Shown piece by piece: positions 8,095 to 21,794 of a DNA stretch of 64,000 nt; position 1 is the first letter of the stretch, and the number at the start of each line of letters is the position of its first letter. A program made the position numbers and the translations under genes. Below the pieces are notes generated by a model, which worked only from the letters and a program-made list of their open reading frames with translations, was not told the DNA's origin and did not search any database. The DNA lies in the NCBI GenBank assembly GCA_044225015.1, contig JBGAJG010000002.1:62113-126112 (forward strand), in the 5' to 3' direction. The stretch is from Chitinophagaceae bacterium (GTDB lineage: Bacteria > Bacteroidota > Bacteroidia > Chitinophagales > Chitinophagaceae).

Positions 8095-9249
8095 CCTTTT
8101 AATCCGTTCCCTTTGCCTGGCTTTTTCGCCGGTGGCATAGTTTTTCAAAGTGATCACCGGCGTTGTGTGGCCGTCCAATGTAGCGGCGTGGTGGATATCC
8201 AGTTTCGCGGCGATCAGGTCGGCAAAGGTATGTTTCAGGGCATAAAAGTCCTTTTCAATGCCCAACCCGCGCTTTACATGCTTATCCCACCGCCGGTTCA
8301 CCTGATCCGCCCGGATCATCGATTTCCCAGGTCGCAGGTTCCTGGAAAATAAATACCATCCCGGTTTTGATTCCGCCAGCAATTCACGCCACAAAGGCAA
8401 TGCATCGTCGGTGATCACACGGATGTCATGCCGGTATGCGTTACCTTTCTTCACCAATACCCTGAATTCCTGGGACTGCAAATCCACGTCCGAGGCCTGC
8501 AGCCGGAATAGTTCGGTCGTTCTGGATCCGGAATAAAAGAAAATCACGATGTACCTGTAAAACGTGTATTGGCTATCCTTCAACCTGGTCAGGGCGGCCA
8601 GTTCATCCGGCGTCAAGGATTGGCGCATGTGAAACGTTTCCTTTGCCTTTGCGATATCCCGCACCGGGTTGGTTTCCGCCAATTCCAGTTCGATCAATTC
8701 CCGCCATATCCTGGAAAGGTATGCCCGATATTTGTTGAACCGTTTAGCCGAAAACCTGGGATTGGTTTCCCTGATGTGATCGAACACCTGTTTGATGTGT
8801 TTGCGGGATACATGGCCAATGGGATGGTCCGCCAGTCCCAAGGTGCGGGCGGCGGCGATCACCGCCCTGGCTACCGACCGGATATCGATCAACGTCCCTT
8901 TCACCGCCTGTATCTTCCCAACGGAAAATTCCAGGGCGTCGGCAAACCCTGTTTTTTCGCCCAATACGGGCGCCTTCATTTCCGGCAACACATTATCCCA
9001 TGGATTGAACCCGGCGTCCAGGATAGTGGTTTCCTGCACAATTAGGGCGGTTGTGGCGGCCTGGCGTTCCTTCAGGTCGTGGAACCTGTTCATTCCACGT
9101 ATAACAACCTGTTTGGGTTTGGGGAATCGAGGGTCATAAAACCGGTATGTGATCCGCCAGGGTGTGGCGGTGCTGGCCTTTGCCGTTTTCCAGTTTTTGG
9201 GGATGACGGATATCGGCGAAACCCGACATCCGTTTTGCAGTTGTTTCAT
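8062..9249 (-). CDS. Tyrosine recombinase / phage integrase
   Basis: 395 aa. C-terminal catalytic region has SGSRTTELFRL, ALKHTFADL and LDGHTTPVITLKNYA (R..H..H..Y pattern). Lies next to a tRNA 3' end. Confidence 0.85.
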   Translation of the reverse strand: MKQLQNGCRVSPISVIPKNWKTAKASTATPWRITYRFYDPRFPKPKQVVIRGMNRFHDLKERQAATTALIVQETTILDAGFNPWDNVLPEMKAPVLGEKTGFADALEFSVGKIQAVKGTLIDIRSVARAVIAAARTLGLADHPIGHVSRKHIKQVFDHIRETNPRFSAKRFNKYRAYLSRIWRELIELELAETNPVRDIAKAKETFHMRQSLTPDELAALTRLKDSQYTFYRYIVIFFYSGSRTTELFRLQASDVDLQSQEFRVLVKKGNAYRHDIRVITDDALPLWRELLAESKPGWYLFSRNLRPGKSMIRADQVNRRWDKHVKRGLGIEKDFYALKHTFADLIAAKLDIHHAATLDGHTTPVITLKNYATGEKARQRERIKRSGIRFGSDLI

Positions 9250-9323: not shown

Positions 9324-9333
9324 GTTGTGATTG

Positions 9334-9404
9334 TTGCCCGACCTGGATTCGAACCAAGACAAACAGAACCAAAATCTGTCGTACTACCATTATACTATCG
9401 GGCA
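9334..9404 (-). tRNA. tRNA-Gln (anticodon TTG)
   Basis: Hand-folded cloverleaf. Acceptor TGCCCGA/TCGGGCA, D stem GTAT/GTAC, anticodon stem ACAGA/TCTGT with loop TTTTGGT, T arm CTTGG-TTCGAAT-CCAGG. 71 nt. Confidence 0.85.
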
Positions 9405-11709: not shown

Positions 11710-11717
11710 TACATTTG
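11710..11717 (+). promoter_or_regulatory. -7 box TACATTTG upstream of the PorV-like gene
   Basis: Exact TAnnTTTG on the + strand, 57 nt upstream of ATG 11775. It overlaps the track's alternative start at 11715. Confidence 0.45.
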
Positions 11718-11774: not shown

Positions 11775-12887
11775 ATGAAACTGAACAAAAACCTGACCCT
11801 CATCACCCTGATGCTGTGCCTTACCCAAACCGGATTGGCTCAATTCAGGAAATATTCTAATGAATTTCTGAACATTGGCGCTGGTGCGAGAGGATTGGCA
11901 ATGGGCGGAGCCCAGGTGGCATCCAGCCAGGATGGAACTTCGGGGTACTGGAATCCGGCAGGCCTCACCGGGCTGAAAGACTATCCGGTATTGTCCCTGA
12001 TGCATGCGGAGTATTTTGCAGGAATAGGAAAATACGATTTCCTGAGCCTGGCCATTCCGATGACGGACAAGAAACGAACACTGGGGATCTCTATTCTTCG
12101 ATTTGGGGTAGACGATATTCCTAATACACTCTTCCTGATTGAACCGGACGGTTCTATCAACTACAACAATATTCGTTCTTTCTCTTCCGCGGATTATGCA
12201 TTCTTACTTTCATATGCGCAAACCATCAGAAAGACAGAAACAAAGCACCTTTCCTTTGGCGTAAATGCGAAAGTGATCCATCGTAATGTGGGAACCTTCG
12301 CCAGTGCCTGGGGCTTTGGACTGGACGCCGGTGTGCAATACCAGACAAAACGCTGGAAACTGGGTATTGCGGCCAGGGATCTCACCACTACTTTTAATGC
12401 CTGGACCTTCAGTTTTACGGAACAGGAGAAAGAAATTCTTTACCTGACCAATAATGATATTCCGGTAAAGTCAACGGAGATGACCGCCCCAAGGCTGATC
12501 GTGGGTGCAGCATATGACTGGAAGATCAACAACGCGCTCAACCTTTTATCTGAGGTGAATCTGGATCTCACTTTTGATGGTAAACGTAATGTTTTACTGA
12601 GTGCAGACCCCCTTAGTGTGGATCCCCGTGTAGGCCTTGAATTAGGATATAAGCAGACTATTTTCCTCAGAACCGGCATTTACAATTTCCAGCAGGCACT
12701 GGCAGACGGGGATACCCTGAACCAGAAGAAAGTCTGGATATACCAGCCCAGTATAGGTGTAGGCTTTAAGTTGAAACACATAGGCATTGACTATGCGTTC
12801 ACCAACCTGGCGAATCAGTCTAATCCGTTATATACCCATATTTTTTCGTTGCGATTAAACCTCGTTAAAACGAAGAAGAAAAGCTGA
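11775..12887 (+). CDS. PorV/PorQ-family (FadL-like) outer-membrane beta-barrel protein
   Basis: Signal peptide MKLNKNLTLITLMLCLTQTGLAQ. Family-like N-terminal motif FLNIGAGARGLAMGGAQVASSQDGTSGYWNPAGL. Alternating beta-strand pattern. Lies 16 nt upstream of the C25 peptidase gene. Confidence 0.65.
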   Translation: MKLNKNLTLITLMLCLTQTGLAQFRKYSNEFLNIGAGARGLAMGGAQVASSQDGTSGYWNPAGLTGLKDYPVLSLMHAEYFAGIGKYDFLSLAIPMTDKKRTLGISILRFGVDDIPNTLFLIEPDGSINYNNIRSFSSADYAFLLSYAQTIRKTETKHLSFGVNAKVIHRNVGTFASAWGFGLDAGVQYQTKRWKLGIAARDLTTTFNAWTFSFTEQEKEILYLTNNDIPVKSTEMTAPRLIVGAAYDWKINNALNLLSEVNLDLTFDGKRNVLLSADPLSVDPRVGLELGYKQTIFLRTGIYNFQQALADGDTLNQKKVWIYQPSIGVGFKLKHIGIDYAFTNLANQSNPLYTHIFSLRLNLVKTKKKS

Positions 12888-12903
12888 TCCAAAACATCCA
12901 CGT

Positions 12904-15900
12904 ATGAAGAGAGTACTTTTTTTGGTAGGACTGCTGCTGATTGGAATGGGTGTTAAAGCCCAGTTCAACAATGAGTGGATTGATTATTCCAAAACCTATT
13001 ATAAATTCAAGGTGGCCAGCAATGGCCTTTACAGGATATCCCGTGCAACATTAGACGCATCAGGCATAGGTGGTACACCCGTTGAACAGTTCAGGCTGTT
13101 CAGAAATGGCGTTGAAGTGCCGCTCTACACCACAATTCCGTCAGGTGCTTTGGGTGGGTCAGATTACATCGAGTTTTATGGCAAAATGAATGATGGGAAG
13201 CCGGATAACAAACTGTACTATATATCCAGTTTTCAGCTCAACGATGTATGGAGCCTGGAAACAGACACCTCTTCATATTTTCTGGTAGCGGATCCTGCAG
13301 CCACCGGGCTTCGTTATAATACCCAGGTAAATGACGTGGCGGGTAATGCCCTGCCAGTGGAGCCTTATTTCATGTACACTTTTAAGAAGCCTTACAGGGA
13401 AATGATCAACCCCGGTTTTGCTGTGGATCTTAAAACGGCATATGTTTACTCATCATCTTATGACCAGGGTGAGGGATGGAGCAGTGGTGACATCTTCCAT
13501 GGATCACCCTTAACCGAAAACATCGGCGATCTTGCACCTTATTCAGGAGGGCCTTCCAGTGTGCTTAGCATTTCTGCGTCTGGCAATACGTTCACAGCAA
13601 GAACTATTCAGGTAGCCATTAACGGAACCACCCTGATCAATTCCGCCATGAACTATTTTTTTGCTTCTACAAAGCAGGCAAATTTTTCAGGATCGATCCT
13701 CGGAAAGCCGGGTGGAGACCAGGTGGTTATTACTAATACCACGGCAGACCCAAGGGTGGTAGACAGGATGGTTGTAGCCACTTTCAGTATCACCTATCCA
13801 CGCAAATTTGATTTTGGAGGGAACAAGCAATTTGAATTTCAGCTTCCGGCAAACCCGGCGGGTATGTACATTGAAATTGCCAATTTTAATGCAGGTTCAA
13901 CAGCGCCGGTTTTGTATGATATGGCTAACAGGGAGCGCTATGTGGGCGTAGTGAATGGCGGCCTCGTGAAATTTGCATTGAAGCCTTCATTCCAGCCCAG
14001 GCAACTGGTGTTGTTGAATGCGGATAATAGTGAGATCAGGAGCATAAATACATTGAAGCCCCGGAATTTTATCAACTATGGTCAATCCGCTAACCAGGGA
14101 AATGCTTTGTACATTGCGCACAAGAGTCTCTTCAGCAGTTCAAGGGGAAATCCTGTGGATGCATTTAAAACCTACCGATCTTCTGCGGCCGGAGGTAGTT
14201 ATAACCCAATCATTGTAGACATCGAAGAGCTCTATGATCAGTTTGCTTTCGGGATCCAGGAGCACCCCCTGTCTGTCAAAAATTTTATCAACTATTCCCT
14301 GAATCGATTTGCCGTAAAGCCAAAACACGTGCTGCTGTTTGGCCGGGGTACGGTTTATTCCGATGTTAGAATGCGCGATCAGTTTGCAGCAAGCCATGAA
14401 ATCAATCTGGTGCCTACGTTTGGGTATCCAGGTTCAGATAATGTGCTTGCGTCATCAAATTTCATCGCCAGTCCTGCCATACCCATAGGCAGAATTGCCG
14501 CTATTAACGGAGATGAAGTGATGACTTACCTTGACAAGGTAAAAGAGCATGAGAGTATGCTCTCCACTGTGCCACAAACCATCAAGGACAAAGCCTGGAT
14601 GAAAAATGTAGTGCATGCAATTGGTGGCAGTGACCCCTATCTGCAGTCGGTGATTTTTGGATACATGAACACCAACAAGTCTGTTGTTGAAGATACATTG
14701 TACGGTGGAAAAGTATATACATTCAGCAAGAACTCTTCCCTGGGTGTTGAACAGCTGACCTCTGAAGAACTCACTAATCTGTTTTCAGATGGCATCAGTT
14801 TGCTGACTTATTTTGGGCACTCTTCCCAGAATACCCTGGAGTTTAATATTGACGATCCTAATAAATACAGTAACAAAGGCAAGTACCCTCTATTTGTGGT
14901 GAATGGGTGTAACGCAGGAAATATATTCACTTATGATACTACGCGCCGAATTGGTGGCGGCATGTCTCTCTCTGAAAACTATATGCTTACCAAGGACAGG
15001 GGGAGTATAGGATTTCTTGCCAGTTCGCATTTTGGCATCGTGAATTACCTGAATATCTACACCTCAAGTATTTATCACAGCATTTCAGTAGAGCGATATG
15101 GGCAAACATTGGGAGAAATGCAGAAATATGCCCTGGAAAGATTACTGCTAAATGTGCCGTCTGGTGATTTTTATGGAAGGATGCATGCTGAACAAATCAA
15201 CCTCCATGGAGATCCGGCGTTGCAGTTTTACGGATCGCCACAGGCAGACTATGTCATAGAAGAGCCGTTAGTGAAAGTAACGCCTTTGCCAGTTTCCGTG
15301 GCAGAAACAGATTTTACCCTGAATGTGAAGTGGTTAAATATCGGAAGGGCAGTGGGTGACAGCTTTAGGGTAAAAGTAACGAGACTGTTGCCTAACGGAA
15401 CCACAGTTGAGTTATTCAACCAACGGATTCCTACCACTTTATATAAAGATTCCATTGAATTGAGGGTGCCTGTCAATCCTATTACGGATAAAGGCGAAAA
15501 CAAGATCACGGTTGTATTGGATGCAGATAATACTATACCTGAAATGTCTGAATCAAATAATACAGTGACCCTCAGTTTCCTGATTATTGATGACGAGATC
15601 AGACCTATCTCTCCTTACAACTATGCCATTATCAACAAACAGCCCCTTACATTCTATGCATCAACAGCCAATCCATTCTCGCCTGTTAAAAGCTATATGA
15701 TTGAGGTGGATACCACTGAATTGTTTAACTCATCATTTAAGAAAAGCCAGACCCTGTCTTCGCCTGGTGGTTTGCTGCAATTTAATATACCAGGGCTTAC
15801 CCTCCAGGACAGTACCGTTTATTATTGGCGAACAGCACAGGTGCCCGCGGGTAATGTGGCACCTACATGGAATACATCATCTTTTGTATACCTTCCCAGT

Positions 15901-17964
15901 AGCACTCCGGGATATAATCAAAGCCATTACTACCAGATAGCAAAAAGTAGTTTCCATAAAATGACGCTGGACCAGGATCGGGTCATGAGGTTTACAACTA
16001 AAAAGCGAAACCTTTCCATCAAAACAGGTATTTATCCATACTTTATTAACGACCGTCTTACCGTTAATCTTGACGATGATATTGTCTCCAGCTATGGATG
16101 TAGATACAGCTCATTGCAGATCGTAATATATGATAAAGTTACCCTGGAGCCATGGAAGAATAGTGTGCAGCCAGATGGTGGCGGACGTTTTGGCAGTTGG
16201 AGACCATGTAGTTCCAATAAAGCATTTGAATTCCCATACGGAGATCCAGTGTACAGAAAACGAGCCATTGATTTTCTGAATTCAATCCCGGCAGGTAGTT
16301 ACATTTCTATCACTAACCTTGGCGCTGATTTTAATACTTCATTTATTGGCGATTGGATGAACGATACGCTTACACTGGGTTCTGGACAGTCCCTTTATCA
16401 TACACTGAAGCAACTTGGTTTTGTGGATATCGATAACTTTACAACTAACCTTCCATTTATCTTCCTTACAAGAAAAGGTGGTTTTGGGTTTCCCAATTAC
16501 CAGAAAATGGGCCTCAAAATTGACGATTATCTTGAAGCCGTTTTCAACCTTGATGCATCAGAAAGCCATGGCACCGTTGAATCACCCTGGTTTGGACCCG
16601 CGCTGAAGTGGAATCATATGCGCTGGAGTGGTACGGATGTAAATCCCTACTCAGACAGTGTAGCCATAGACATAGTAGGTAAGAATTACCAGGGCCAGGA
16701 AACCCTGCTCGCTACAATTTATCCTTCAACAGATTCAACACTCAGTTTTGTGGATGCTAAACAGTTTCCGTTCATCAGGCTGAGGATGAATAATTCTGAT
16801 GTCTTGAACGGCACGCCCAATCAATTGCGTTACTGGAGGATCAATGCAGACCTGCCACCGGAAGGTGCCATTGCTCCTAATGTGTATTTGAAAGCCAAAG
16901 ATAGTTTGGATGTGGGTGAACCATATACTTTGGAGGTGGCGTTCAAAAATGTGAGCCAATCTGCTTTTGACAGTGTGGCTGTTCAGATGACGGTTACCGA
17001 TGCAAGTAATACGGTAAGGGATATTAAAGTGCCCAAACAAAAACCCATTCCTGTAGGAGATACCCTTGTGTTGCGTTATCCTTTGGATACAAAGGATCTA
17101 GTGGGAGTTAATACAGTTTTTCTGAATTTCAATCCAAACTTTGCACAGCCTGAACAGTATCTGTTTAACAACTTCCTGTTTAAGAGCTTTAAGGTACAGG
17201 GAGACAGTTATGACCCAACCCTGGATGTGACTTTTGATGGCGTAAGGATACTGAACCGGGATATCGTTTCTTCCAAGCCAAGTATCGTGATCAAACTCAC
17301 AGACAATAACAGGTTCATGCTGCTGGATGACACTTCACTGGTTAGTGTCAAAGTGCAATACCCTAATGGAGTCACCAAAGAGTATAGATTTGACAATGAC
17401 ACACTGAAATTCACGCCGGCTGTAAATTCTAACGGTTCAAAGGACAACACTGCAACTATTGATTTCAAGCCTGCCTTCCTGGAAGATGGCCTGTATGATC
17501 TGATCATTACCGGGAAAGATAAGAGCGGGAATGCATCCGGAGTAATTGAGTATAAGGTAAGTTTCAGTATTGTCAATAAACCAATGATCTCTAATTTGCT
17601 CAACTATCCCAATCCGTTTACATCATCCACCGCCTTTGTGTTTACACTTACCGGCAGTGAGATTCCGCAGAATATGCGTATTCAAATTTTGACGGTTACA
17701 GGAAAGGTGGTGAGAGAGATCACTAAGGATGAACTGGGTCCAATTCACATTGGCCGAAATATCACCCAATACAAGTGGGATGGAACGGATCAATATGGGC
17801 AGAAACTTGCAAATGGTGTTTATTTGTATCGTGTGATCACCAACCTGAATGGCAAATCCCTGGATAGGCTTGATCTAACTGGAAAGAATGCTGAGCGGTA
17901 TTCAGACAAAAGTACTGACAGGTATTTCCAAAGCGGCTACGGTAAAATGTATCTTATGCGGTAG
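12904..17964 (+). CDS. Giant secreted peptidase C25 (gingipain-fold) protein, PorU-like T9SS sortase paralog candidate
   Basis: 1686 aa with a signal peptide. YFGH (His639, nt 14818-14820) and VVNGCNAG (Cys669, nt 14908-14910) lie 30 residues apart, close to the spacing I recall for gingipains. Two CARDB-like modules (..EMSESNNTVTL; ..PEQYLFNNF). C-terminal CTD-like sandwich NYPNPF...GVYLYRV plus a 45-aa tail. Confidence 0.65.
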   Translation: MKRVLFLVGLLLIGMGVKAQFNNEWIDYSKTYYKFKVASNGLYRISRATLDASGIGGTPVEQFRLFRNGVEVPLYTTIPSGALGGSDYIEFYGKMNDGKPDNKLYYISSFQLNDVWSLETDTSSYFLVADPAATGLRYNTQVNDVAGNALPVEPYFMYTFKKPYREMINPGFAVDLKTAYVYSSSYDQGEGWSSGDIFHGSPLTENIGDLAPYSGGPSSVLSISASGNTFTARTIQVAINGTTLINSAMNYFFASTKQANFSGSILGKPGGDQVVITNTTADPRVVDRMVVATFSITYPRKFDFGGNKQFEFQLPANPAGMYIEIANFNAGSTAPVLYDMANRERYVGVVNGGLVKFALKPSFQPRQLVLLNADNSEIRSINTLKPRNFINYGQSANQGNALYIAHKSLFSSSRGNPVDAFKTYRSSAAGGSYNPIIVDIEELYDQFAFGIQEHPLSVKNFINYSLNRFAVKPKHVLLFGRGTVYSDVRMRDQFAASHEINLVPTFGYPGSDNVLASSNFIASPAIPIGRIAAINGDEVMTYLDKVKEHESMLSTVPQTIKDKAWMKNVVHAIGGSDPYLQSVIFGYMNTNKSVVEDTLYGGKVYTFSKNSSLGVEQLTSEELTNLFSDGISLLTYFGHSSQNTLEFNIDDPNKYSNKGKYPLFVVNGCNAGNIFTYDTTRRIGGGMSLSENYMLTKDRGSIGFLASSHFGIVNYLNIYTSSIYHSISVERYGQTLGEMQKYALERLLLNVPSGDFYGRMHAEQINLHGDPALQFYGSPQADYVIEEPLVKVTPLPVSVAETDFTLNVKWLNIGRAVGDSFRVKVTRLLPNGTTVELFNQRIPTTLYKDSIELRVPVNPITDKGENKITVVLDADNTIPEMSESNNTVTLSFLIIDDEIRPISPYNYAIINKQPLTFYASTANPFSPVKSYMIEVDTTELFNSSFKKSQTLSSPGGLLQFNIPGLTLQDSTVYYWRTAQVPAGNVAPTWNTSSFVYLPSSTPGYNQSHYYQIAKSSFHKMTLDQDRVMRFTTKKRNLSIKTGIYPYFINDRLTVNLDDDIVSSYGCRYSSLQIVIYDKVTLEPWKNSVQPDGGGRFGSWRPCSSNKAFEFPYGDPVYRKRAIDFLNSIPAGSYISITNLGADFNTSFIGDWMNDTLTLGSGQSLYHTLKQLGFVDIDNFTTNLPFIFLTRKGGFGFPNYQKMGLKIDDYLEAVFNLDASESHGTVESPWFGPALKWNHMRWSGTDVNPYSDSVAIDIVGKNYQGQETLLATIYPSTDSTLSFVDAKQFPFIRLRMNNSDVLNGTPNQLRYWRINADLPPEGAIAPNVYLKAKDSLDVGEPYTLEVAFKNVSQSAFDSVAVQMTVTDASNTVRDIKVPKQKPIPVGDTLVLRYPLDTKDLVGVNTVFLNFNPNFAQPEQYLFNNFLFKSFKVQGDSYDPTLDVTFDGVRILNRDIVSSKPSIVIKLTDNNRFMLLDDTSLVSVKVQYPNGVTKEYRFDNDTLKFTPAVNSNGSKDNTATIDFKPAFLEDGLYDLIITGKDKSGNASGVIEYKVSFSIVNKPMISNLLNYPNPFTSSTAFVFTLTGSEIPQNMRIQILTVTGKVVREITKDELGPIHIGRNITQYKWDGTDQYGQKLANGVYLYRVITNLNGKSLDRLDLTGKNAERYSDKSTDRYFQSGYGKMYLMR

Positions 17965-19942
17965 ATGTCTTTCGCCATCTGAGCCATACCCAGGCCATGG
18001 TGAATACATATATGAACTCGAGCACTAAGAGCCACCCAATCAAAGGATGGGAAAAACGGAGCCGTATCTGATTTGAATTTGTTCCTGTGGGAATGGCCAT
18101 CAATCCCTCATGGGTCATTTGAATCTTTTTTGACTTACCATCCTGTTCTGCTATCCATCCCGGATACCAGTTTTGTTTGATAAATAAAGTATCCTCCTTA
18201 GGGAGTTTGGCGGGGAATAATATTGAAGTGAATTGAAAGCGCTCAGGTACTATGGCCGGGCCGGATGTAAGAAAAAATGGCGGTTTTGCATACCAAAAAG
18301 TCCTGGTTCCTGACTTCAGGAATTCAAGCGTCTGGGGAAAAATCAACGGATAGTCAATAAGGTTCTCCTGGGCAATCTGGCCACTAACCAATGCCCAGTT
18401 TCCTGTGTAACGAACTGTATTTGGATAAGCGGATACTACAGACCATTCCGCTTTGTTCTCCGGAATCACCGCATTTCCTGGTGCGAGGCTGAACATTTCA
18501 GCAATCTCGTTTACTGATTTTTGACCCACCCCAGTGAATGGTAAATACATTGAAGAATTTACGATAAGGTCAATACAGCAAACCAGACACAGAAGGCCCA
18601 GTCTTTTCTTGCGCCAGGATGCCAATATGCCCTCACAAATCAGCATCTGAACCGGAAACTGAATAAGGATCGTTTGTGCAAAACTGAGATGGTCAAGGAT
18701 ATATTTGATCTGTCCTGTTCCTGATCCCTCAACGCCAAAATCAATATGCAGTGCATTGGGCTCTGTGGCTATCGCTGATAAAGCACTGGCAATAAGCAAT
18801 CCCTGTATGGAGCGCACTATTCTGACTACAAGTTTTGTATCTGTCTCATTCCAGGCCTTCACCAGACTGATACCGCCAGACAGAATAAAAGCCATAATGG
18901 CAAAAATCCGGAATTCAGCATTGAGACGCACATGGTGCAGGATGGGAATGCTTTTATACAACGGTAGGATGATTTCACTGGAAAGAATGGCAAAGAATAA
19001 ACCCAGGAAAAGAAAAAATAAAGCGTCACGCTGACGGCGGTGAATAATGGTGATGATCAGACCTATAAGCAATAACAAGCCGAAATAACAGTTACGCAAT
19101 GCAGGGTCATTGTGAAGCCAGGGCGCCTTTACAGAGGAAAGAGGTATCAATGTGCTTGCCCAGCTGGCTATAGGAGTAGCACCTTCTGGTGTGATGGATC
19201 CTGTTACAGCTCCAATCCTGTTGGTATGTGGCAGGACTTCTGCATATCCGTAGATCATTCCGGCAATTCCCGTCAGGGTAATCATGGCCGCCTTCACCAC
19301 GCGGGCGGTTGCGCCTGAATTTTGGTTTAACCGTGAAGTCAAAAGCGGAATCAAAAACAGCGCGGCTCCAATGATGTGCCCAGGGTGTGCTGCAGTAAAA
19401 AACCAAAGACCTGAAATCCCTGTTGCTGCCAGGTAATGACGTTGTCCTGATTGTATGTAACGGATGAGGCTGTAAGCAAATAAAGGGAAACAAGCCATTC
19501 CGGCAATCCAGTTAAAATGCTGGATATGGCTTACAAAAAATCCGCCGCAAACAAAACTCAAAGCGATGGCGAAGCGAAAGGGTAGGGAATTAACCCAGAT
19601 GCCGCTGAACTTGTACATGGCATAGCATCCCAGCAGCAGGTACAGGATAATCTCAATGGTGAAGCTCCAGGGTGTATAGCCTACAACTGCCACAAGCCAG
19701 GTGCCGGGATTCCACCAGGCCTCACTAATGTCTCCATAGACAGGAAAGCCATAATTAAGAAAGGGGTTCCAGAGCGGGAATATACCATCATGAATGGCCA
19801 CTGATAAATAACGCTTCAGTGGAAAATAGGCCGTAAAAAAATCATTCTTGATCGCAAATAGAAAACTGGTAACCGGCAAGTATGCAATCAAAACAACCAA
19901 AAAACCAATGGGTAATAGTCGTTTTTCGGAATTAAGTTGCAT
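17954..19942 (-). CDS. YfhO-like polytopic membrane protein (GT-C-type glycosyltransferase candidate)
   Basis: 662 aa with more than 10 hydrophobic segments. N-terminal FPLKRYLSVAIHDGIFPLWNPFLNYGFPVYGD resembles the YfhO family. 11-nt convergent overlap with the C25 gene. Confidence 0.5.
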   Translation of the reverse strand: MQLNSEKRLLPIGFLVVLIAYLPVTSFLFAIKNDFFTAYFPLKRYLSVAIHDGIFPLWNPFLNYGFPVYGDISEAWWNPGTWLVAVVGYTPWSFTIEIILYLLLGCYAMYKFSGIWVNSLPFRFAIALSFVCGGFFVSHIQHFNWIAGMACFPLFAYSLIRYIQSGQRHYLAATGISGLWFFTAAHPGHIIGAALFLIPLLTSRLNQNSGATARVVKAAMITLTGIAGMIYGYAEVLPHTNRIGAVTGSITPEGATPIASWASTLIPLSSVKAPWLHNDPALRNCYFGLLLLIGLIITIIHRRQRDALFFLFLGLFFAILSSEIILPLYKSIPILHHVRLNAEFRIFAIMAFILSGGISLVKAWNETDTKLVVRIVRSIQGLLIASALSAIATEPNALHIDFGVEGSGTGQIKYILDHLSFAQTILIQFPVQMLICEGILASWRKKRLGLLCLVCCIDLIVNSSMYLPFTGVGQKSVNEIAEMFSLAPGNAVIPENKAEWSVVSAYPNTVRYTGNWALVSGQIAQENLIDYPLIFPQTLEFLKSGTRTFWYAKPPFFLTSGPAIVPERFQFTSILFPAKLPKEDTLFIKQNWYPGWIAEQDGKSKKIQMTHEGLMAIPTGTNSNQIRLRFSHPLIGWLLVLEFIYVFTMAWVWLRWRKTSTA

Positions 19943-19976
19943 TGAAGTAATTTACGATGACTGGTTAAATATACTA

Positions 19977-20864
19977 ATGAACGAAATAACCAACAGAACA
20001 TTCTGCGTGTACTGTGGCTCTGGGACGAAGGTGTATGATGCACAAGCCAAACATCCTTATGTAGCCAATCACGGCCCCTTCAGGATATTGGAGTGCACCG
20101 TATGTGGTTCTCTGCAAACTGATCCATTACCTTCCTCCAGGCAGCTGAATGAATTATACCAGCAGTATCAGAAAGGCATGTTTGACGGGATAGCAGAACT
20201 CAGGAGAAAATTCCCCCTGCATGCATGGTTTGCACATTGCCTGCGCAGGATCAGGGCTCTTGTGCCCAAAGGAAAAAGTGATTTTGTGTGGGTAGACGTT
20301 GGCGCCGGCGATGGGATCATGAGTGAGATTATGATGAAGGCCTTTCCTTCCAGTATAGGTTATGCAGTTGATATGCACCAAAGGCCTCCGAGATTAGAAG
20401 CTTTGCCGGTTAACTGGCTACAGGTGGATCTCAATGCAGCAATACAAAACATACCCAAAGCTGATTTGATTTTTTCTATCACAGTGGCTGAACACGTTTC
20501 AAAGCCGGATGATTTTTTGCATGGATTGATGAATCAACTGAATGATGGAGGCTCACTATACTTCAACTGCCCACGTGCAGACGCCCTGGCCCGGAGAATA
20601 TTGGGTAAGCGATGGCCCTACTATCTTCCTGGAGAACATATCACCATACCTTCAAGACGGGGAATGAAGATTTTACTACAAAAACTGTCTAAAGACAGAT
20701 TTGGGGGAAAGGCCATTGTGCAGGTTGATGGTGTCACTATGCCTTATCCTCTGGGCTACTATTTAGGTTATTATCTGGGATGGAAATTTGAAAAGTATCT
20801 GTGGAATCCTGACGTATTTTTGCCTACCGGATTGCTGGAAGCTACCGTAACCAGCAGGCTATAA
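19977..20864 (+). CDS. Class I SAM-dependent methyltransferase with an N-terminal zinc-ribbon
   Basis: Start set at ATG 19977 (MNEITNR); the track start is a TTG lying inside the divergent gene. CVYCGS...CTVCGS pair. SAM motif I VDVGAGDG. Confidence 0.75.
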   Translation: MNEITNRTFCVYCGSGTKVYDAQAKHPYVANHGPFRILECTVCGSLQTDPLPSSRQLNELYQQYQKGMFDGIAELRRKFPLHAWFAHCLRRIRALVPKGKSDFVWVDVGAGDGIMSEIMMKAFPSSIGYAVDMHQRPPRLEALPVNWLQVDLNAAIQNIPKADLIFSITVAEHVSKPDDFLHGLMNQLNDGGSLYFNCPRADALARRILGKRWPYYLPGEHITIPSRRGMKILLQKLSKDRFGGKAIVQVDGVTMPYPLGYYLGYYLGWKFEKYLWNPDVFLPTGLLEATVTSRL

Positions 20865-21794
20865 ATTGATTTTTTTATCGATAATAAATGGTGGTCTTTT
20901 TTTGATCTCTTTGAACATACTGGCGATGTATTCACCGATGAGTCCCAATACAAGGAGTTGTACTCCACCCATGAACATCACGGCTGTTATGATGGAGGTC
21001 CAGCCAGGTAATGTGTTCCCTTTAAAATGTGCCACAATAGAATAGATGCCCATTGCAAAGGCGATAAAGGACACGATGGTGCCAATAAGAAGGCTTATCC
21101 TCAGCGGTTTGAAACTAAACGAGATGGCACCTTTGATGCCCAGGCTCATCATACTTGGCCAAGAGTATTTAGACTTCCCGTGTTGCCTCGGTGGAGCCTG
21201 GTAGGCAACGGTAGTGGTTCTAAAACCGATCCAGCTGAAGATACCCCTCACAAACAGCTCCCGTTCCTCAAACTGTAGAATACTTTGTAATATTTTTTCA
21301 TTGAAGAGGCGAAAGTCCGCCACATCTTTTTCAATATGCGTATCTGCGATGAAATTAAGCAACCGGTAATACAGTGACGAAGTCCATTGTTTAAGAGGGC
21401 CTGCTTTCCTCGTTTCAATTCTTTTGGCAGACACCATATCATAGCCCTGCTTAGCAGCAGTAATCATTTGGGGGATGACCTCGGGCGGGTGCTGGAGGTC
21501 TCCATCCATAATCAGGATCCATGATCCATGCACTGCGTGCAGTCCAGCGATCAGCGCCGCCTGGTGGCCAAAATTCCTGGAAAATGAAATGGCTTTAACC
21601 CGTGAATCTCCGGAAGCCAGGTCTGCAATGGCGTTGAGACTGGAATCAATGCTGCCATCGTCCACAAAAATCAGTTCCGTGAACTCAACATTGCAGTTAT
21701 TCAGGGCAGAATACAAAAGGGGTATATTCTGCGCCTCGTTGTACACCGGAACCACAATGGAAAGGGGCTGCATGGAAGAGTCGTACATATTCAT
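20859..21794 (-). CDS. GT2 polyprenyl-phosphate glycosyltransferase (GtrB/ArnC/CsbB-like)
   Basis: 311 aa. IVVPVYNE, FVDDGSIDSS and DGDLQHPPE motifs, plus two C-terminal TM helices. Confidence 0.8.
   Translation of the reverse strand: MNMYDSSMQPLSIVVPVYNEAQNIPLLYSALNNCNVEFTELIFVDDGSIDSSLNAIADLASGDSRVKAISFSRNFGHQAALIAGLHAVHGSWILIMDGDLQHPPEVIPQMITAAKQGYDMVSAKRIETRKAGPLKQWTSSLYYRLLNFIADTHIEKDVADFRLFNEKILQSILQFEERELFVRGIFSWIGFRTTTVAYQAPPRQHGKSKYSWPSMMSLGIKGAISFSFKPLRISLLIGTIVSFIAFAMGIYSIVAHFKGNTLPGWTSIITAVMFMGGVQLLVLGLIGEYIASMFKEIKKRPPFIIDKKINL

Follow-up and report, generated by a model that had tools for sequence, protein, structure and literature searches.

The stretch of DNA analysed here, 64,000 nucleotides of contig JBGAJG010000002.1 of a Chitinophagaceae bacterium (hereafter the window), carries two adjacent genes, porV2 and porU2, which encode an outer-membrane barrel protein of the PorV/PorQ family and a large secreted cysteine peptidase of family C25. 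Reading the letters alone, the original prediction had taken them for a second type IX secretion system (T9SS) sortase/shuttle module, and the analysis supports this reading: that the two proteins belong to the PorV2 and PorU2 families, paralogous to PorV and PorU, is virtually certain. A check of the open reading frames (ORFs) reproduced both predicted ORFs with their coordinates, as well as the gap between them, which is 16 nt long with both genes on the same strand. The two signal peptides are of the Sec type and both end in AQ, followed by F; that of PorV2 covers residues 1-23 and precedes a PorV-type N-terminal motif at residues 31-64. The features of the locus are collected in Table 1.

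Table 1. Features of the porV2-porU2 locus, in coordinates of the window (Ig, immunoglobulin; CTD, C-terminal domain; AF2, AlphaFold2; pLDDT, predicted local distance difference test; TM, template modelling score).
Feature	Position	Strand	Description and basis
Candidate Bacteroidota-type -7 promoter element, TACATTTG (TAnnTTTG)	11710-11717	+	Motif match; 58 nt 5' of the porV2 ATG
porV2	11775-12887	+	370 aa from the ATG; PorV/PorQ-family outer-membrane beta-barrel protein
porU2	12904-17964	+	1686 aa; putative second T9SS sortase, a secreted C25 cysteine peptidase of several domains
PorU2 Sec signal peptide, residues 1-20, cleavage between MKRVLFLVGLLLIGMGVKAQ and F	12904-12963	+	Sole hydrophobic segment; predicted helix
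PorU-like N-terminal beta-sandwich region, residues 21-401	12964-14106	+	hhalign to PorU; all-beta in the AF2 model; Foldseek to 6ZA2
Peptidase C25 catalytic domain, residues 402-774	14107-15225	+	PF01364, 170.7 bits (gathering threshold 23), E = 7.5e-50
CARDB Ig-like domain, residues 799-889	15298-15570	+	PF07705, 25.7 bits (cut-off 22.7); Foldseek to 3IDU, TM 0.77
PorU2-specific middle region, residues 890-1511	15571-17436	+	Array of Ig/macroglobulin-like beta-sandwiches and one small alpha/beta domain (~1108-1186)
PorU-like C-terminal module, residues 1512-1655	17437-17868	+	Last Ig domain and T9SS type-A-like CTD
Variable low-confidence loop, residues 1656-1677	17869-17934	+	After the CTD core; pLDDT below 50; lacking in canonical PorU
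C-terminal nonapeptide GYGKMYLMR, residues 1678-1686	17935-17961	+	Invariant; predicted beta-strand (1679-1685)

PorU2 was assigned to its family with hidden Markov models (HMMs). It scores 858.6 bits against NF052324 (PorU_rel_Nterm, of the equivalog_domain type, with a cut-off of 450), residues 5-886 aligning with positions 3-879 of a model of ~879, and fails the canonical PorU model NF033707 with 154.6 bits (cut-off 420). The control, the genuine Chitinophagaceae PorU Niako_6994, behaves in the opposite way, with 1389.9 bits on the PorU model and 196 on that of PorU2; this and the other canonical Chitinophagaceae PorU sequences were taken from the supplement of PMC7323717. PorV2 reaches 562.2 bits on the PorVQ2 equivalog NF052325 (cut-off 325; residues 12-363 on model positions 10-353 of 354) and 118.4 bits on the PorV_fam subfamily model NF033709 (cut-off 90; residues 30-363 on positions 5-326 of 326), but its 48.8 bits on the canonical PorV model NF033710 and its 76.7 bits on the PorQ model NF033711 fall short of the respective cut-offs, 250 and 220. 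PorV2 is thus shown by its sequence to be a member of the PorV/PorQ barrel family, yet neither PorV nor PorQ. The PorV/PorQ-type motif pointed out in the original prediction is indeed present, residues 31 and 58 being the first of FLNIGAGARGLAMGGAQVA and of YWNPAGL, respectively. The match to the PorV structure of Flavobacterium johnsoniae (6H3I) is weak and lies in this N-terminal motif.

In NCBIfam, the label of NF052324 is 'putative type IX secretion system sortase PorU2', and that of NF052325 is 'putative type IX sorting system protein PorV2'. Both are curated, computationally defined families, and scores of this height on them are not a matter of chance. The suggestion that the pair represents an undescribed system was therefore wrong at the level of the databases, where these two models, as well as RefSeq and UniRef names, already designate putative PorU2 and PorV2.

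PorU2 shares the architecture and the catalytic dyad of PorU

Profile-profile alignment by hhalign joined residues 4-776 of PorU2 to residues 23-800 of a profile of 24 canonical Chitinophagaceae PorU sequences with a probability of 99.3% (E = 8.5e-21, 690 columns). In this alignment, YFG-H639-SS of PorU2 is paired with YSG-H-GG of PorU, and VNG-C669-NAG with TAT-C-DV, and the same His/Cys pairing was obtained in a profile-PDB alignment against the P. gingivalis PorU chain (PG0026, PDB 6ZA2). The gingipain-type dyad that had been proposed from the letters was found where it had been placed: YFGH starts at residue 636 and contains His639 (codon 14818-14820), VVNGCNAG starts at residue 665 and contains Cys669 (codon 14908-14910), the two being 30 residues apart. 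Both residues align with the C25 catalytic dyad, and both, together with the GDP motif G769-D770-P771, are invariant among homologues of 32-78% identity.

An AlphaFold model of PorU2 residues 1-900 (pLDDT 82; predicted TM score, pTM, 0.78) agreed with this assignment. Its best fold match in the PDB, by Foldseek, was P. gingivalis PorU 6ZA2 (E = 4e-28, ~1,030 aligned columns), followed by the gingipains, first RgpB (~1e-20) and then Kgp (~1e-15). PorU2 shares its catalytic fold with the gingipains (TM 0.57-0.65 on the target), as well as its type of His/Cys dyad; however, the gingipains lack the PorU-type N-terminal domains, their CTDs are cleavable, they are cargo and not machinery, and PorU is a much better match. 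At the other end of the protein, residues 1512-1655 aligned with positions 994-1134, the last 140, of the Chitinophagaceae PorU HMM (72.6 bits) and with residues 1010-1141 of 6ZA2 (E = 5e-7). Single-sequence and profile searches of PDB sequences with PorU2 returned the PorU CTD only, and it is the profile-profile and fold comparisons that reveal the C25 homology.

These comparisons show that PorU2 has in common with PorU the signal peptide, the N-terminal architecture of beta-sandwiches, the C25 domain with an intact dyad, and the C-terminal module of an Ig domain and a type-A-like CTD; in both systems, moreover, the gene of a PorV-family barrel is adjacent. PorU2 is 15-21% identical to canonical PorU in the shared region and scores below the PorU equivalog cut-off. 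Unlike canonical PorU, it has ~620 additional residues that separate the CARDB domain from the C-terminal module, and its CTD is followed by ~22 additional residues and an invariant terminal strand. In porV2-porU2 the barrel gene precedes that of the peptidase, whereas in canonical loci porU precedes porV, and the canonical pair coexists with porV2-porU2 in relatives. In short, PorU2 is a PorU with ~620 residues inserted ahead of its C-terminal module.

The inserted residues, 890-1511, are modelled mostly with a pLDDT of 80-90; no alignment to the PorU profile and no Pfam domain above threshold was found in them. Foldseek matches of this middle region were arrays of macroglobulin (MG) domains of complement C5 and alpha-2-macroglobulin. 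The original prediction had listed two CARDB-like modules: one passes the HMM threshold; the second, predicted to be a beta-sandwich of the Ig-like kind, has no match in Pfam. In the small alpha/beta domain, residues ~1119-1192 (16258-16479 of the window) gave a sub-threshold match to the Pfam ILEI/GG-like family (E = 0.015). From this sequence resemblance, the domain may possibly be a glycan-binding module.

The predicted CTD-like sandwich was recovered as a Pfam FlgD_ig match over residues 1574-1644; the extra tail said to follow it is shorter than the 45 residues originally counted, the stretch after the HMM-defined CTD measuring ~31-35 aa. Against the generic CTD model TIGR04183 (cut-off 23), PorU2 scored 21.2 bits as a full protein and 27.9 bits as an isolated domain, the alignment stopping at position 64 of 72 of the model. 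The isolated CTD scored 62 bits on the PorU CTD and 34 bits on the PorZ CTD, both above the generic model. The CTDs of PorU and PorZ are not cleaved and hold these proteins on PorV and PorQ, respectively (PMC10202324).

The very end of the protein, the nonapeptide GYGKMYLMR, is the most conserved part of PorU2. It is invariant in 26 of 26 sequences that are otherwise 49-78% identical, and a consensus GxGKMxLxR persists at 32% identity (GLGKMVLIR). Among genome loci, it is identical in 63 of 80 and shows conservative changes only in the others; the genome scan, with alignment A1, used tail and CTD patterns, so that these tail statistics are partly circular, and the conservation of the tail was for this reason judged also from alignment A2 and locus L084, which were chosen on the C25 domain. 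The loop that precedes the nonapeptide (residues 1656-1677) is variable in both alignments. Canonical PorU ends ~8-10 residues past the aligned core, with '...EKLEKLFIL'. Read most simply, GYGKMYLMR is probably the final CTD strand, which the ~22-residue loop would have displaced from the sandwich, and/or a docking element.

Paralogy, distribution and genomic surroundings of the pair

The claim that the window holds a paralogous second PorU/PorV-like pair was borne out by relatives in which both pairs are present. On the chromosome of Paraflavitalea soli (CP032157.1), canonical porU (1142 aa) and, after it, porV (398 aa; Pfam PorV) lie at 5.31 Mb, and tyrS, porV2 (371 aa) and porU2 (1692 aa) lie at 4.37 Mb. 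At least five further genomes have both: PorU and PorU2 occur together on one 7,568,047-bp contig of a metagenome-assembled genome, and Niastella caeni, N. vici, Longitalea luteola and Paraflavitalea sp. CAU 1676 are in the match lists of both proteins. Explicit proof that porV2-porU2 and canonical porU-porV are paralogous on one chromosome is new here. PorV2 of the window is 68% identical to PorV2 of P. soli, and 27% identical over 88 aa to the canonical PorV of that species.

In a neighbor-joining tree of the shared N-terminal and C25 region, PorU2 does not cluster with canonical PorU: the split between the two families has a bootstrap of 92/100. Identities are 15-21% between the families and 28-83% within them. 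Chitinophagaceae PorU groups in this tree with the PorU of Tannerella and Hymenobacter, not with the PorU2 of the same genomes.

In two loci of Niastella and Paraflavitalea (L086, 4062-5645; L087, 3224-4825), a divergent gene of the FGE-sulfatase family precedes canonical porU-porV. This family includes GldJ and GldK, so that the canonical pair has other gliding/T9SS genes next to it, whereas the neighbour of porV2-porU2 is tyrS.

Homologues of PorU2 fall into more than 2,400 clusters at 90% identity, and the best 120 are all 1,664-1,713 aa long. A search with the C25 domain only returned 1,317 clusters at 50% identity with E <= 1e-30; among its best 150 matches, almost all are 1,600-1,780 aa long with the domain starting near residue 400, and canonical PorU is not one of them. 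A scan of one genome per species found the signature peptides in at least 550 genomes, and the counts of the tail and of the gene pairing given here refer to the best 80 of these. All 80 belong to Chitinophagaceae/Chitinophagales (Ferruginibacter, Agriterribacter, Lacibacter, Niastella, Terrimonas, Ginsengibacter, Puia, Segetibacter and others). Wherever a locus extends far enough upstream, porV2 lies immediately 5' of porU2 (76 PorV2 for 80 PorU2 genes), and the gene on its upstream side is nearly always a divergent tyrS, which is also the arrangement of the window. The pairing is kept even at 32% PorU2 identity, in a different neighbourhood and with a 4-nt overlap of the two genes. Inherited vertically, the pair forms a core operon of two genes in Chitinophagaceae/Chitinophagales and is no accessory island.

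The length of PorU2 and the order of the genes, reversed with respect to porU-porV, had been put forward as anomalies. Both are real; as anomalies they do not stand, the length range of the best homologues and the gene order common to the loci being norms of the family. The traits of PorU2 in the family (~1,670-1,710 aa, C25 at ~400-780, PorU-type CTD, loop and GYGKMYLMR) are all found here, and between the NCBIfam PorU2/PorV2 families and the pair of the window there is no substantive difference in length, domain order, gene order, neighbourhood or tail. The pair is a typical member of its family, a copy without unusual features. The sole other place where the exact PorU2 of the window occurs is a metagenome contig of 15 kb, and reads of SRR28480385 contain the identical locus; no species representative in the genome collection exceeds 53% identity to it, and another metagenome protein is 99% identical.

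Five loci (L001, 3883-8664; L012; L028; L064; L085, 8001-14306) carry an extra PorU2-like C25 gene between tyrS and porV2. The products of these genes are ~1,590-2,100 aa long, with intact catalytic motifs, and lack the PorU-type CTD, the loop and the invariant tail; two of them end in an ordinary type-A CTD. In the tree, they nest inside the PorU2 clade at more than one place, and they arose more than once.

Upstream of the pair, the open frame of porV2 begins before the ATG, with a TTG at 11715. The ATG at 11775 is the likely true start since homologues start at the equivalent Met; it is also favoured over the TTG because the TACATTTG element lies partly inside the TTG-started ORF. This element, which falls in the 138-nt spacer between the divergent tyrS and porV2, has the Bacteroidota -7 consensus, TAnnTTTG, which occurs in the window at ~0.27 per kb per strand; we infer from the sequence match that it may be the promoter element of porV2-porU2. 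A scan for sigma-70 promoters and terminators gave no useful information, which in Bacteroidota is to be expected.

Otherwise the window carries housekeeping genes (tyrS, ribE, xerC, tuf, rpoB, gltBD, ilv and others), and no other T9SS gene, core or cargo, was found in its 64 kb. At its left end, on the minus strand, a tyrosine integrase gene (8062-9249) lies directly beside a tRNA-Gln gene (9333-9404), and in a syntenic relative (locus L002) the genes to the left of an SGNH-lipase gene are different ones; for these two reasons, the window from 1 to ~9300 is probably an element integrated at tRNA-Gln. Further to the right, between 24267 and 26184, a tRNA cluster (Thr, Tyr, Gly, Thr) lies 5' of tuf and tRNA-Trp follows it, which are ordinary surroundings of tuf.

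The three genes 3' of porU2 (17954-21794) encode a YfhO-like polytopic membrane protein of 662 aa, an S-adenosylmethionine (SAM) methyltransferase and a polyprenyl-phosphate glycosyltransferase of family 2 (GT2), the best NCBIfam match of the last being PgfS with 272 bits, below its cut-off. The YfhO-like gene is convergent with porU2, with an 11-nt overlap that includes the porU2 stop codon. The three genes resemble an extracytoplasmic glycosylation set, and in ~22 of 82 related loci a YfhO-like homologue is encoded no more than 10 kb downstream, at a variable distance. Considered as the acceptor-glycan pathway of the module, the set was rejected: it is backbone synteny only, its distance varies, and it is absent in F. 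lapsinanis.

Proposed function of PorU2 and PorV2 and its alternatives

A parallel for a pair of this kind is found in the PorQ-PorZ sub-complex of P. gingivalis, where, as proposed for PorV2-PorU2, a PorV-family barrel holds a large surface protein via an uncleaved CTD (PMC10202324). PorV2 scores slightly higher on the PorQ model (76.7) than on the PorV model (48.8), and the CTD of PorU2 also matches that of PorZ; PorZ, however, is a non-catalytic beta-propeller delivering anionic lipopolysaccharide (A-LPS), whereas PorU2 is a C25 peptidase.

By analogy with these systems, we favour, with moderate confidence, a mechanism in which PorU2 would act as a processing enzyme docked at the cell surface on PorV2. 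Both proteins would cross the inner membrane via Sec, and PorU2, relying on its PorU/PorZ-type CTD, would then pass through the T9SS translocon. This CTD would be retained, as is that of PorU on PorV and that of PorZ on PorQ, and would keep PorU2 docked on a dedicated barrel, PorV2, with the invariant GYGKMYLMR strand forming part of the interface between the two proteins. At the cell surface, Cys669 and His639 would cleave, and probably transpeptidate, a subset of secreted proteins, and the Ig-like arm may give PorU2 reach or serve in binding of acceptor or substrate, the whole making up a compact second attachment complex. The role of PorU2 as a sortase and the nature of its cargo are what we infer from sequence, and the distinct cargo class or anchor that the original prediction had assigned to the pair is a conjecture of the same kind.

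A bolder form of this proposal would make PorU2-PorV2 a self-contained two-protein attachment complex, in which the insert, with its possible GG/ILEI-like glycan-binding domain, replaces PorZ/PorQ in their role of presenting the acceptor to PorU, the loop and the invariant tail are a new, PorV2-specific docking signal that keeps PorU2 off PorV and shields the CTD from cleavage, and a particular group of cargo proteins of Chitinophagaceae is anchored to an acceptor other than classical A-LPS; we consider this form doubtful.

Several points weigh against the mechanism that we favour. Taken alone, the sequence of PorU2 is compatible with a transpeptidase as well as with a plain protease. Neither a PorZ- or PorQ-like partner nor a cargo gene was found linked to porV2-porU2 in the window or in related loci, and the docking of PorU2 on PorV2 is argued from analogy and from the adjacency of the genes. 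The extra PorU2-like copies, with an ordinary CTD or without the special one, fit a secreted protease cargo as well as they fit a sortase. Deletion of the loop from the sequence brought no gain in the CTD HMM score or alignment. Coexistence with a canonical pair was shown in relatives, the view of the organism's own genome being that of the 64-kb window. Finally, literature searches for PorU2 and PorV2 yielded superscript-citation artefacts and unrelated uses of the names only, and no experimental study of any member of the families; those on the T9SS of Chitinophagaceae yielded general background.

The same observations lend themselves to another reading, which we regard as unlikely though it deserves serious weight, that PorU2 is no sortase but a C25 protease of the gingipain kind, located at the surface or secreted and serving in degradation or in maturation, for which PorV2 would be only a private carrier or anchor comparable to the PorP/SprF-type barrels of individual type-B cargo. 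The members of family C25 are first of all proteases, and after PorU it is the gingipains that match best in structure; the PorU2-like paralogues that lie beside the pair, with an ordinary type-A CTD or none, have the appearance of normal cargo; the long Ig-like arm is reminiscent of the extensions, adhesin or haemagglutinin, that secreted proteases carry; and an acceptor-delivery partner such as PorZ is not linked to the pair in related loci. However, it is the whole N-terminal part of PorU2, 776 residues, that aligns to PorU and not merely the C25 domain, PorU has an E-value seven orders of magnitude better than that of the gingipains, and the CTD is most like the uncleaved CTDs of PorU and PorZ. 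In addition, a core, syntenic, single-copy operon in which the two genes go one to one in at least 550 species is more like machinery than like a nutritional protease.

That the pair is the only PorU/PorV of its lineage, a fast-evolving orthologue that has replaced the canonical genes, we hold to be very improbable. The lack of any other T9SS gene in the window and the finding of the exact PorU2 elsewhere only on a 15-kb metagenome contig would fit such a replacement, but each of the named relatives that were checked has both the PorU/PorV and the PorV2/PorU2 sets, the bootstrap of the PorU/PorU2 split and the grouping of Chitinophagaceae PorU with that of Tannerella and Hymenobacter speak for two families, and the synteny of tyrS, porV2 and porU2 is the same as in genomes having both modules. 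It is likewise hardly credible that PorU2 is mainly a structural stalk or adhesin of Ig-like domains, with a peptidase that is vestigial or limited to self-processing, since, although over half of the protein consists of beta-sandwich repeats whose Foldseek matches are non-enzymatic arrays of MG and fibronectin type III (FN3) domains, the invariance of His639, Cys669 and the GDP motif across the 1,317 clusters argues for retained catalysis.

To what is already recorded under the names PorU2 and PorV2, this analysis adds the paralogy of the two modules at the level of a chromosome, a map of the domains of PorU2 that separates shared from inserted parts, and the conservation of the terminal nonapeptide. 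How T9SS cargo is divided between release and surface attachment is unsettled, and so, outside P. gingivalis, is most of the chemistry of attachment. A universally conserved second sortase-like enzyme with a barrel of its own, belonging to a large family of bacteria of soil and rhizosphere, is an obvious candidate for a second sorting route that is open to gene knockout, and taken together the members of the PorV2/PorU2 family make a sensible target for experiments on T9SS sorting and anchoring outside Porphyromonas.

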